39,203 bases of DNA from an uncultured Candidatus Saccharibacteria bacterium. Its GTDB lineage: Bacteria; Patescibacteriota; Minisyncoccia; Phycocordibacterales; UBA9973. Shown in pieces: positions 18,481 through 21,377 of this stretch; the stretch's first letter is position 1; every line of letters starts with the position of its first letter. The stretch lies in the NCBI GenBank assembly GCA_964354935.1, contig CAYHBT010000004.1:1-39203 (forward strand), written 5' to 3'. The notes below the pieces were generated by a model, which saw nothing but the letters and a program-made list of their open reading frames with translations, was not told where the DNA came from and did not search any database. Position numbers and translations under genes: made by a program.

Positions 18481-18566
18481 TCCATACCCGAATTATATGG
18501 TTTTTCTATAATCTAAGCTACTTAAACTCTGTGGTGATTCCAAGCTATTGGGATATTACGGAGAAG

Positions 18567-18595
18567 TTGACAGAAATAGCTTTTGGGTGTATAAT
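18567..18595 (+). promoter_or_regulatory. Consensus sigma70 promoter of the DGR target gene
   Basis: TTGACA-N17-TATAAT. Confidence 0.8.
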
Positions 18596-18679
18596 ATACA
18601 GTTAGTTTTGTACATTGATAAAACTTGCGAGTTCGCCATAGCTTTTAGCGTGCAAAATAAATTTTGTAAATTAAAAGCT

Positions 18680-19360
18680 ATGGTAGAACCAAATCAGGTT
18701 ACCGAGCTAGAAAATAATCAAAAGAAAGTTGATGACGCCATGGAAACCATGACCCCATCTAAAGAAATGACAGACGGACAAATCGATAAAGCTGTTGACA
18801 GCTATCGCGCGGTTCTGCGTAAGCATCGTTCAGAACTCGGTTCCGAAAATGTGCAATACATACTCGGTCAACCCGAATATGTGGCAGAACAGGTGTTGGT
18901 GCTTCGTCGGCGTGTCGAATCGGTTAGTGAAATGATTGTCCGTCATTTCAAGATCGACCCAAACAAGTCACCAAATCAAATGATCACCGCTTTGGGTCGC
19001 AAAGAGTATGTCAATGTTGACGTACTCTCAACGATGCCTGCGCCGGAATTGTTGGAGGGCGACCTCTACTTTTTTCCGGTGAAGAAAGTAATTCCAGTCG
19101 CAGAATATGATCGCGAATTCGAGATTCGCGGTTTGGTGCCTCACCCATACGCCCAAATTCAGGTGAACGCCGATGACCAGGCTTTCGCGGATGAACACCC
19201 GAACGGCGTTCAATGGAAAGACAAAGACGGCAATATTTGCTGTGCGTATTTCGACCGCTGGCTTGGCGAGCGCAAGGTGGACGTCAATCGCTACGACAAC
19301 CGCTGGGACGATGGCTGGTGGTTTGCCGGTGTTCGCAAGGATATTGTTCCTCAGGTTTAG
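18680..19360 (+). CDS. DGR target protein with C-terminal variable region
   Basis: The 3' end contains the VR. The start is placed downstream of the consensus promoter (ATG 18740 is an alternative). No signal peptide or TM helix. Confidence 0.88.
   Translation: MVEPNQVTELENNQKKVDDAMETMTPSKEMTDGQIDKAVDSYRAVLRKHRSELGSENVQYILGQPEYVAEQVLVLRRRVESVSEMIVRHFKIDPNKSPNQMITALGRKEYVNVDVLSTMPAPELLEGDLYFFPVKKVIPVAEYDREFEIRGLVPHPYAQIQVNADDQAFADEHPNGVQWKDKDGNICCAYFDRWLGERKVDVNRYDNRWDDGWWFAGVRKDIVPQV
19235..19338 (+). repeat. DGR variable repeat (VR)
   Basis: 104-bp ungapped match to 19800-19903 with 13 substitutions, all at TR adenines. Confidence 0.95.
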
Positions 19361-19799
19361 GTCTAGTTGGTTCTCTCGAACCTTTGGACTTAGTCCTGCA
19401 TTCGATTTTAAAATCAATAACTGTGGGTGCTTGTTATCTAACCCTCAAAAAGTCCTGCTTAACCACTTTAATGTGTATGCAGGCTTTTTCATTTGTATTT
19501 ATTTTTTGATATACTAAAAACGGTAGTAGGTGAATATCAGCAAGTGTTCACGGATGCTTGCCACCGAATCCAGTATCCATATATCGAGAATGTCTAAGAT
19601 CACGGTTTTAGACAGAGTGGTGTATGTAGCACTTCATCCTTCGATAAAAACTCAGGATGACCCTGAGTCTGTCGAATGGGTCATAAAAAATGAAAATACT
19701 TGGTATAGAATGCTGACGCATTATGATGCGAAATAATATTCAATCCTAAACTATTCCAAAAGAATTTTAAGGGGTGGTGGTAAAGATGGCATTCTGTAC

Positions 19800-19903
19800 A
19801 ATTGCTATGCGTATTTCAACCGCTGGAATGACGAGCGCAAGGTGAACGTCAATCGCAACGACAACAACTGGAACGATAACTGGTGGTTTGCCGGTGTTCG
19901 CAA
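19800..19903 (+). repeat. DGR template repeat (TR)
   Basis: Rich in in-frame AAC/AAT codons; has A at every position that differs from the VR; adjacent to avd and RT. Confidence 0.95.
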
Positions 19904-19909
19904 CTCTTT

Positions 19910-20275
19910 TCATTTCTCTCCCGACTTTTTGTCCGGAGAGTTTTGCTTTATGAGCTGTCCGTGCCAGCCGCCAAGCTGTTTCCCAGCTGACGCAAAGGGT
20001 TCTGATAAAGCAGTATATTTTTTAGTATCCAATGCTTTAATTTCCCAAAGTATATATAAAAGAAATTTAAGTGTATCCAGCGAGATGATAGCTTTCCGAA
20101 CAAACGGTTGTTTTTCTTGTTTTTCCAAAAAACTTGCTACTAAAATACTCTCGATAGTTTGAATAAAATATTTATCTATTGTTTCCGCTAGAGTATGGCG
20201 TGAAGTTTTTGGAACCGTCGGCAGATAACTTTGCCACAATATGTATGCTGACTTGATTATCTCCAAAACCGGCAA
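19910..20275 (-). CDS. avd: DGR accessory variability determinant (Avd-like four-helix bundle); true start may be ATG 20318 across a homopolymer frameshift
   Basis: Basic helical protein of about 120 aa; LDTLKFLL, GKQLGGW; lies between TR and RT. Confidence 0.85.
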   Translation of the reverse strand: MPVLEIIKSAYILWQSYLPTVPKTSRHTLAETIDKYFIQTIESILVASFLEKQEKQPFVRKAIISLDTLKFLLYILWEIKALDTKKYTALSEPFASAGKQLGGWHGQLIKQNSPDKKSGEK

Positions 20276-20354
20276 TATTTTCCAAGTGGGGGGGGGTCTT
20301 GATAGTTTCTTTTTGCATTTTTTGTATATTAATTTAATAAAGCAAAATCATAGC

Positions 20355-21377
20355 ATGAAATTAATTAAACCTATAAATTTTGAAGAAATAATTTCCGTGG
20401 AAAATTTACTTTTAGCTTGGAAAGAATTTCTGCGTGGGAAAAGAAACAAAAAAGATGTGCCAGAATTTCAACTACATTTAATGGACAACATTCTTTCTCT
20501 ACATAATGATTTAAAAAACAAGACATATATACACGGAGGATATTACGCTTTCAATATTTCTGACCCTAAACCTAGAAATATACATAAAGCTTCTGTGCGA
20601 GACCGACTTTTACATCATGCGATTTATAGGATTCTGTATCCATATTTTGATAAAAAATTCATTCACGATTCATATTCTTGCAGAATAAACAAAGGAACGC
20701 ATAAAGCGATAAACAGATTTCATTTTTTCTTCCGCAAAATTTCAAAGAACAATACAAGGTCTTGCCTTGTACTTAAATGCGATATCAGAAAATTCTTTGC
20801 GAATATCAACCACCAGATTCTCAAAAATATACTGTCAAAGTGTCTCTTTGACACGGATATTCTTTGGTTACTTTCGCAGGTGATAGACAGCTTTTCTTCA
20901 AATCCCATAGGTCAGACCTATGGGGCAATTTCAATATCAGCTATAGCTGATATGCGAAAAGGTCTACCACTCGGCAATTTAACCTCCCAGCTTCTAGTAA
21001 ATATCTATATGAATGAATTTGACCAGTTTGTGAAAAGGGAATTGAAAGTAAAATATTATATACGATATGCAGATGATTTTGTAATTTTGCAAAATAACAA
21101 AATCGAACTTTCAAATATTTTAGCTAAGATTTCAATATTTCTCAGTGAGAGCTTAAAGCTCTCACTGCATCCGGACAAGGTTTTTATTAAAACTGTTGCT
21201 TCAGGAGTGGATTTTCTAGGCTGGGTGAACTTTCCAAGACATAGAGTTTTGCGGAGGAGTACGAAAAGGAAGATGTTGAGGAATCTAACAAAAAATTCAA
21301 AGCCGGAAACAATCCCATCATATTTGGGAATGCTTAAACACGGGAACAGTTATAAATTGAAATTGATTTTAAAATAA
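20355..21377 (+). CDS. DGR reverse transcriptase
   Basis: KPRNI..ASVRDRLLHHA, KCDIRKFF, GLPLGNLTSQ, RYADDF, GVDFLG; no maturase or endonuclease domain. Confidence 0.95.
   Translation: MKLIKPINFEEIISVENLLLAWKEFLRGKRNKKDVPEFQLHLMDNILSLHNDLKNKTYIHGGYYAFNISDPKPRNIHKASVRDRLLHHAIYRILYPYFDKKFIHDSYSCRINKGTHKAINRFHFFFRKISKNNTRSCLVLKCDIRKFFANINHQILKNILSKCLFDTDILWLLSQVIDSFSSNPIGQTYGAISISAIADMRKGLPLGNLTSQLLVNIYMNEFDQFVKRELKVKYYIRYADDFVILQNNKIELSNILAKISIFLSESLKLSLHPDKVFIKTVASGVDFLGWVNFPRHRVLRRSTKRKMLRNLTKNSKPETIPSYLGMLKHGNSYKLKLILK

Follow-up and report, generated by a model that had tools for sequence, protein, structure and literature searches.

We analysed a stretch of 39,203 nucleotides (contig CAYHBT010000004.1 of assembly GCA_964354935.1; hereafter the window, meaning this stretch at its full length) from an uncultured Candidatus Saccharibacteria bacterium, whose genome is available as 669,818 bases in 35 contigs with a completeness of 86.7%. 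The window carries a complete diversity-generating retroelement (DGR), which is composed of a target open reading frame (ORF) with its variable repeat (VR), a template repeat (TR), the accessory gene avd and a reverse transcriptase (RT) gene (Table 1). The subject of this work is a nine-base homopolymer at the 5' end of avd, which may act as a switch of the element. VR and TR differ at 12 of 102 positions, and at 12 of these 12 the TR carries an adenine. The target gene had no Pfam match. The avd ORF matched the Pfam family bAvd (PF22296) with an E-value of 2.2e-8 and 35 bits, which is below the cut-off of 40 bits; many four-helix-bundle proteins with PF22296 are 80-93% identical to the window Avd, and the paralogous Avd encoded on contig C32 of the same genome reaches 51.5 bits. 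Since avd lies on the opposite strand between TR and RT, the locus has the TR-(avd)-RT architecture. According to Wu et al. (PMC5758913), this architecture with reversed avd is termed 'B3' and accounts for 90% of their set of DGRs from the candidate phyla radiation (CPR).

Table 1. Features of the DGR locus in the window and the C tracts of the four avd genes of the genome. Positions are those of the window unless a contig is named.
Feature	Position	Strand	Description
DGR target gene	18548..19360	+	listed ORF begins at TTG, start uncertain; C-terminal part holds the VR
Variable repeat (VR)	19237..19338	+	102-nt direct repeat, 88% identity to the TR
Template repeat (TR)	19802..19903	+	same orientation as VR and RT
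avd core ORF (four-helix-bundle Avd)	19910..20275	-	121 codons from TTG 20275; stop codon 19910-19912
48-codon ORF from ATG 20318, C9 phase	20172..20318	-	proposed 'off'-phase product
avd 5' leader	20276..20318	-	ATG 20318, seven sense codons, C tract, codons to LPVLE; assembled +1 out of frame
Homopolymer	20288..20296		C9 on avd strand, G9 on RT strand; proposed slippage site
AT-rich spacer	20319..20354		36 nt between divergent avd ATG and RT ATG
DGR reverse transcriptase	20355..21377	+	340 aa from the Met common to homologues; Pfam RVT_1, E 3.2e-23
Window avd tract	contig C4		C9; needs +1
C32 avd tract	C32:402-410		C9; in frame
C31 avd tract	C31:141-149		C9; in frame via one of two ATGs
C19 avd tract	C19:5932-5941		C10; needs +1; no alternative start nearby

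The original prediction, made from the letters alone, had proposed that the G9 homopolymer puts the natural start codon of avd one base out of frame and thereby forms a candidate phase-variable ON/OFF switch for the DGR. Re-examination of the reading frames bore out this description. The G9 run on the plus strand reads as C9 after a minus-strand ATG at 20318-20316 and occupies codons 8-11 of the reading from this ATG, which places a slip-prone repeat within the 5' coding region. The span from 20318 to 19910 is 409 nt (3n+1), so this ATG is off the avd frame; the reading starts MQKETIKTPPH... and ends after 48 codons, and the first canonical start codon of the avd frame is TTG 20275, which yields 121 aa. 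When one C is skipped, the reading becomes MQKETIKTPPTWKILPVLEII... and results in a 135-aa Avd, the same product that had been described for a C8 tract. The prediction had further placed the tract within an open 5' extension of the RT frame, and this held in part: the frame is open from ATG 20241 through the tract, but the RT paralogues and relatives begin at, and align from, the Met equivalent to 20355. For this reason we rejected translation of the RT from ATG 20241 through the tract, and judging from these alignments the extension is probably untranslated.

By chance, 0.07 G9 or C9 runs would be expected in the window, and at least one was present in 6 of 100 shuffled versions. Three DNA runs (depths 5.6, 20.1 and 12.6), which are possibly the window's own source, were each assembled on their own; the resulting contigs match positions 18500-20846 without an indel, and because the three run-wise assemblies agree, G9 is a reproducible consensus. 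An error in the assembly of a true G8, which the prediction had named as a possibility, was not what we found, given that all three assemblies have G9 and that the C9 +1 state is also seen in loci of other species: of the closest relatives of the window, seven further species-level loci have a C9 that is one base out of frame. When 27 bases flanking the window tract were used to scan metagenome contigs, 0 matches were obtained in a collection from which records of the same or near genomes are possibly excluded. All tract lengths given here are assembly consensuses.

Evidence that the leader upstream of the tract is coding sequence came from close relatives of the window Avd (77-93% identity), which were drawn from a protein collection (136 matches, the best 120 of which are listed) and from species-representative genomes (L117-L136). 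Relatives that are in frame read M..KTPPTWKILPVLEII, which is the window's C8 reading. The in-frame examples MTNKTPPTWKILPVLEII and MQNKTTEKTPPVWKILPVLEII are collinear with the frame-corrected product of the window, and both prolines are invariant. Of the 120 listed protein clusters, 45 read through from the leader into LPVLE, 42 of them via PP or PPP, and the other 75 are called from LPVLE (19) or from further downstream (56). These downstream-called records probably arise from gene callers failing at an out-of-frame tract, and some may be fragments at contig ends. A few Avd records (P0028, P0037) are extended upstream in the other frame, and three others, P0007, P0017 and P0025, in which the tract is interrupted or lost, are in frame without PP and look locked on. 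In the repeat-free alleles L050, L058 and L065, one uninterrupted ORF runs from the leader ATG onwards.

The codon equivalent to TTG 20275 was compared in 21 close loci and is TTG in 5, TTA in 8, CTT in 3, CTG in 2, CTA in 2 and CTC in 1. Because TTG occurs in 5 of the 21 close loci only, TTG 20275 is, on the basis of this comparison, not a conserved start. The prediction had pointed to homologues starting at the TTG-equivalent position, with neither a homopolymer nor an upstream ATG, as evidence that would speak against it; we found the opposite, as relatives conserve both the homopolymer and a short leader with an ATG. In 14 of 58 poly-C family loci there is a canonical start neither in frame upstream of the tract nor within 21 nt downstream of it. 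A structural model of P0001, an in-frame relative, has a mean pLDDT of 82 and contains helices at residues 11-31, 34-59, 63-89 and 95-112; leader residues 1-10 are non-helical, and helix 1 starts one residue before the TTG-equivalent position. In this model, the avd leader has the appearance of a dispensable tail.

The repeat is widespread among related avd genes. In our family survey, 73 of the 201 genomes searched contained an Avd match, and 92 loci were examined; the loci come from related genomes and hence are not independent, so that chi-square significance is overstated, and ATA and ATT were not counted as start codons. avd and RT were divergent in all scorable pairs. A repeat was present at the site in 23 of the 30 loci of the window-like subfamily (21 poly-C, one (CA)n and one (CAGC)6) and in 41 of the 46 loci of the L002-like subfamily (35 poly-C, three (CA)n and three (CT)n), to which the N-masked L053 (C11) is to be added. 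Overall, the number of repeat-bearing loci in these two related subfamilies was put at 66 of 76. A third, more distant subfamily of 16 loci has a repeat in 2 (one poly-C, one (CT)n), and 12 of its 14 repeat-free loci possess a short in-frame ATG leader (MND.., MNE.., MNQ.. or MDN..). Among the 57 poly-C tracts of the family, lengths of 9 (19 tracts) and 10 (20) are accompanied by 7 (2), 8 (4), 11 (9), 12 (1) and 13 (2). In 10 of the 92 family loci, the same site is occupied by a non-homopolymer repeat, (CA)n, (CT)n or (CAGC)n. The presence of mono-, di- and tetranucleotide units at one site points, as far as sequence comparison can tell, to selection for DNA slippage itself, and this diversity of repeat types is the strongest argument that slippage occurs at the level of DNA. 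Beyond the family, 401 genomes of the phylum were searched, 160 had a PF22296 match and the best 60 matches were scored for a repeat, which was found 30-110 nt upstream of the domain in 20 of these 60 (17 poly-C, 3 others).

A few loci of the survey deviated from this picture. L068 contains N bases where the tract is expected, and in L053, where Ns are present as well, the C11 is preceded by T9 and by a run of 27 G bases. In L119 and L057 the tract is interrupted or lost and the gene is out of frame, and the RT match of L057 is degraded too; both look like decayed alleles.

Within the source genome, long C/G runs are confined to avd. Runs of 5, 6, 7 and 8 bases number 411, 48, 3 and 2, respectively, and only four runs of at least 9 bases exist in the 669,818 bases, each of them at the 5' end of one of four avd genes (Table 1). 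Thus, the 670-kb genome contains four avd/RT cassettes. Three of them are situated at contig ends, which suggests that the assembly breaks on these paralogues.

We scored each tract for an upstream ATG that opens an ORF running into it. Such an ATG is in the avd frame in 17 of 57 family poly-C loci, in 5 of 20 loci comprising the window and its closest relatives, and in 1 of 17 phylum loci. In loci with the window's flanks, C8 is in frame (L124, L133), C9 needs +1 (window, L117, L118, L123, L127, L128) and C10 needs +2 (L136). Comparison of the out-of-frame alleles with each other gave dN/dS values of 0.02-0.09 (27 of 28 pairs computable) at a dS of 0.9-3.5, at which synonymous sites are saturated. 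These ratios argue that out-of-frame avd alleles are under strong purifying selection and are not decaying. Since the proline codons stay CCC despite saturated synonymous sites, the homopolymer itself appears to be under selection. A change of tract length between near-identical loci is seen when L099, in frame with C9, is compared with L107, out of frame with C10: over 2066 nt their identity is 99.13%, there are 17 mismatches, and the tract is the sole gap. In addition, metagenome contigs scanned with the hairpin-plus-tract string of the C32 paralogue yielded 23 L002-type loci, 15 with C9 and 8 with C10; the search pattern demanded at least 7 Cs, so that shorter tracts were invisible to it. 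None of 31 genus genomes, of which 24 are of high quality, gave a MutS (PF00488) match, and the present genome, at 86.7% completeness, showed no MutL domain. Long G/C runs are therefore expected to be unstable. In several loci (e.g. L030, L039, L060, L006/L112 and L036), two upstream ATGs are in different frames, and hence two of the three tract phases would give an Avd fusion.

We also considered the strand that encodes the RT. In the L002-like subfamily, a hairpin of 5-11 bp directly abuts the tract (L002:372-405), and its stems differ by clade and show compensatory changes. Folded sequence by sequence, this hairpin is more stable in RT sense in 32 of 36 sequences and contains 29 G-U pairs among 243 pairs in RT sense versus 6 among 212 in avd sense; the RT-sense strand is rich in G+T, and this alone may explain the folding advantage. 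Per-sequence folds were used because the consensus fold of a MAFFT alignment, which is not structure-aware, retained 4 pairs only. The preference for the RT strand is suggestive, and the hairpin could be an element of an RT-sense DGR RNA or a stimulator of slippage. No such hairpin flanks the window tract, where positions 20254-20289 fold at only -2.9 kcal/mol. The distance from the tract to Avd helix 1 is fixed; measured to the predicted RT start, it varies between -12 and +59 nt, apart from a single outlier (+151). A general role of the G run as Shine-Dalgarno sequence of the RT was rejected, as the run is 7-37 nt away from the RT ATG in relatives and 58 nt away in the window. In L033, L051, L062, L072, L076, L077 and L089, the predicted first residue of the RT lies at or upstream of the G run. 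In these seven loci, the repeat could be inside the RT as glycine codons, and one tract could frameshift both divergent genes.

Taken together, these data support the interpretation given by the original prediction, a slippage-prone on/off tract, and from them we infer switching within populations and toggling of hypermutation. That a hypermutable repeat gates translation of Avd, and hence the activity of the DGR, is in our assessment modestly probable. In this model, ATG 20318 would be the natural avd start. At C9 the ribosome would leave the avd frame and produce a 48-residue peptide, with at most leaky synthesis of Avd from TTG 20275, and at C8 or C11 translation from ATG 20318 would give an Avd of 135 or 136 aa (M..KTPP(P)TWKILPVLEII...). 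Replication slippage would often shift the tract by one base, such that a minority of cells in the other phase would exist in every population; frequent gain or loss in a C/G run of 9-10 bases is expected because the genus shows no MutS. Only cells in the 'on' phase would then make full-length Avd, form an active RT-Avd complex and have their VR rewritten, and the majority of cells, including those represented by the consensus genome, would be 'off' or at most leaky. The four cassettes of the genome, two in frame and two needing +1, could be switched independently in each cell. The restriction of VR diversification to 'on' cells follows if the dependence of the RT on Avd in the Bordetella phage carries over: according to PMC6182149, bRT alone is without reverse-transcriptase activity and Avd is required. 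The dependence of the RT on Avd is thus proposed here by analogy, and the rate of switching and its effect on hypermutation are likewise extrapolated. In a published survey (PMC8144416), the CPR-restricted DGR clade 2 has an activity below average. This is circumstantial agreement with a mostly-off state, and a switch of the kind proposed, if true, may explain the lower activity. A broader and more tentative proposal is that about a third of Patescibacteria Avd genes carry such a repeat and that it would serve as a heritable, stochastic switch for each cassette, with most cells off, amounting to two-tier bet-hedging; we regard this as a reasonable possibility.

Several observations weigh against a switch at the DNA level, and some of them are equally what would be predicted by programmed recoding. 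By that explanation, +1 alleles would be the norm and Avd would be made at a low fixed rate in every cell, either through a +1 slip of the ribosome with tRNA-Pro on CCC-C, an alternative that the original prediction had raised as well, or through slippage of RNA polymerase that gives rise to transcripts one C shorter, and in-frame and +2 alleles would be mutational noise. Judged from the closest upstream ATG with an ORF into the tract, shifts of 0, +1 and +2 are required in 17, 25 and 14 family loci, in 5, 14 and 1 of the loci of the window and its closest relatives (a ratio of 14 : 5 : 1 in favour of +1) and in 1, 11 and 5 phylum loci; pooled, this is 23, 50 and 20 of 93 related, non-independent loci, with +1 as the modal class. 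Such an excess of +1 would also be expected from directional recoding, and a bias of DNA slippage towards insertion would generate the same skew. Furthermore, the homopolymer is C on the avd strand in 57 of 57 family and 17 of 17 phylum loci and never G. This counts against mutability as the selected property, because pure selection for mutability predicts no strand preference, and a tract that is always C on the coding strand favours recoding. Shared ancestry, tolerance of proline or a requirement for a G-rich RT strand could account for it; di- and tetranucleotide variants in the family sample likewise contain C on the avd strand. Tract length differs in one of five near-identical locus pairs and is equal in the other four. 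No heterogeneity of tract length within the population was seen: all three run-wise assemblies have the same G9, a single consensus length across three samples that agrees with recoding, and assembled contigs drop minority variants. Which ATG opens the leader is ambiguous in loci with overlap between the leader and the 5' coding region of the RT, since such an ATG reads on the opposite strand as a conserved His codon of the RT. Finally, a start at TTG 20275 could, according to the structural model, give a nearly complete four-helix bundle, and the 'off' state would then possibly be leaky.

Recoding gains further support from the sequence of the tract itself. Once ACC CCC CCC has been read, tRNA-Pro in the P site can move on by one base and still pair perfectly, and the codon that follows, ACT, is in the avd frame. 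The length of the RNA:DNA hybrid is close to the modal run lengths of 9-10, the window run has a length that suits a transcriptional slippage site (a homopolymer of about 9 or more), and strong purifying selection on out-of-frame alleles is what recoding predicts. However, the direction of the shift is not conserved, as 23 of 93 loci and 45 of 120 listed protein clusters are in frame and all three phases occur. The 10 of 92 family loci with a (CA)n, (CT)n or (CAGC)n repeat at the site fit neither ribosomal slippage on CCC-C nor known transcriptional slippage. A ribosomal +1 site needs four bases only, not 9-13. In the window, CCC-C is slippery, but the next 0-frame codon is an ordinary CAC, neither a stop nor obviously slow, and no hairpin follows (-2.9 kcal/mol). 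Suppressors of +1 slips on proline codons are present, with TrmD found and EF-P in 24 of 31 genus genomes. In view of these points, we consider recoding unlikely. We had also entertained a lack of EF-P that would turn PPP into a frameshift trap and rejected it, as PF01132 was not found in this 86.7%-complete genome but was in 24 of the 31 genus genomes.

A different function of the tract is conceivable, in which it would act in cis, either in the control region of the divergent avd and RT genes or in the DGR RNA of RT sense (e.g. as a promoter spacer, a G-rich leader element or a hairpin partner), with Avd starting downstream at TTG 20275 and with an upstream ATG that is fortuitous or constrained by the RT. 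The near-random phase of the upstream ATG in family loci agrees with this, as does the presence of GTG, TTG or ATG within 21 nt after the tract in 33 of 58 poly-C loci. So do the identity of the leader ATG with the complement of the conserved RT His codon in many loci, the tract-abutting hairpin of the L002-like subfamily with its RT-sense preference, the G-rich character of every repeat type on the RT strand, and the P0001 model, in which the bundle begins essentially at the TTG-equivalent position. Yet relatives do not conserve the downstream start (TTG is present in 5 of the 21 close loci, and 14 of 58 poly-C loci have no canonical start), and its presence is unrelated to phase: it was counted in 22 of 36 loci that have no in-frame start upstream and in 11 of 22 that have one. 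The tract keeps its place relative to Avd helix 1 and not to the RT start, repeat-free and in-frame alleles translate straight through the region, and the folding advantage of the RT strand may reflect G+T richness only. A purely cis-acting role thus appears rather improbable to us. We attach very little credence to the view that C9 is a homopolymer error or that avd is a drifting pseudogene. Homopolymers are prone to error, the assembly consists of 35 contigs at 86.7% completeness, and L119 and L057 with their interrupted tracts look decayed, but three run-wise assemblies agree on G9, other species show the same out-of-frame state in assemblies made independently, the ORF of avd is intact (dN/dS 0.02-0.09), and the TR/VR differences are purely at adenines.

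The DNA-level switch that we favour has counterparts in known systems. In Campylobacter, Neisseria and Helicobacter, poly-G/C contingency loci undergo translational phase variation by slipped-strand mispairing. The avd loci resemble them in having a G/C run of about 8-11 in the 5' coding region, in- and out-of-frame alleles of an intact gene, a length that is polymorphic between near-identical strains, and a host in which no MutS was found. They differ in that the switched gene encodes an accessory subunit of a DGR and is not a surface or restriction-modification gene, so that one stochastic mutator would gate another. They also differ in that the hosts are free-living or episymbiotic CPR bacteria and not animal pathogens. 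In Haemophilus influenzae, loci of the lic1/lic2 type contain tetranucleotide repeats, and more than one of their frames has a start codon. Some avd loci likewise have two upstream ATGs, and L069 carries the (CAGC)6 variant, whereas most avd repeats are homopolymers and graded expression would be a guess. Phasevarions, in which phase-variable methyltransferases switch whole regulons, share with the proposed switch that a simple repeat in one gene stochastically controls a downstream programme of genome-level variation, but here the programme would be targeted hypermutation of a ligand-binding protein and not methylation-dependent expression. Programmed +1 frameshifting on proline codons is known from sites at which CCC-N slips, among them the CCC-UGA site of Listeria phage PSA. 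The avd tract resembles such sites, as CCC-C allows perfect re-pairing of tRNA-Pro and +1 alleles are in excess. It is unlike them in lacking a stop or evidently slow codon, in its varying direction, in its overlong run and in the other repeats at the same site. With the DGR of Bordetella phage BPP-1, the window element shares an RVT_1 RT, a four-helix-bundle Avd and TR/VR differences at adenines only. The avd gene of BPP-1 lies upstream of the TR and has the same direction, whereas the window avd is antisense between TR and RT, forming a 400-nt 'spacer' for which the accessible portions of the literature offer no studied counterpart.

In those portions of the literature that were available to us, no repeat, frameshift or phase switch was linked to the control of avd or of a DGR; Paul et al. 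2017 or the supplements of surveys might mention the tract. The term 'Poly-C' in PMC12875486 was rejected as a prior mention, as it refers to library tailing. Repeat-mediated phase variation and DGRs are each already known. The regulation of DGR activity is largely unknown. If true, a heritable and reversible switch would limit a retroelement that is costly and mutagenic to a subpopulation, one repeat would control the RT as well as Avd in loci whose RT start is at or beyond the tract, and the biology of contingency loci would extend from animal pathogens to environmental, mismatch-repair-deficient CPR bacteria. There is also a practical consequence for annotation. About 60% of the listed public Avd records (75 of 120 clusters) start at or after LPVLE, and surveys of DGRs that rely on called proteins may mis-score such cassettes.

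A few further features of the locus and the genome were recorded. The promoter and terminator scan of positions 19700-20600 gave 7 weak promoter-like sites, compared with 3.2 +/- 2.0 in shuffled sequences, and nothing usable. Contigs from one RNA run cover 18823-18974 and 19107-19444 and none extends over avd or the RT, which makes them uninformative on expression of these genes. Rfam returned sub-threshold matches only on the window; one of these, to RT-7 RNA, lies between the target gene and the TR at 19584-19639 on the plus strand (25.9 bits against a gathering threshold of 116.8, E 0.002). Elsewhere in the genome, a G8 run (G000:C9:10601-10608; L146:802-809) is located just before a TATAAT-like hexamer, between ORFs that by eye resemble peptidyl-tRNA hydrolase and signal peptidase. 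A (GA)10 repeat is present at G000:C4:48262-48281, about 9 kb past the end of the window, with no ORF of at least 60 aa over it. The G8 run and the (GA)10 repeat are possible further repeat-controlled sites.

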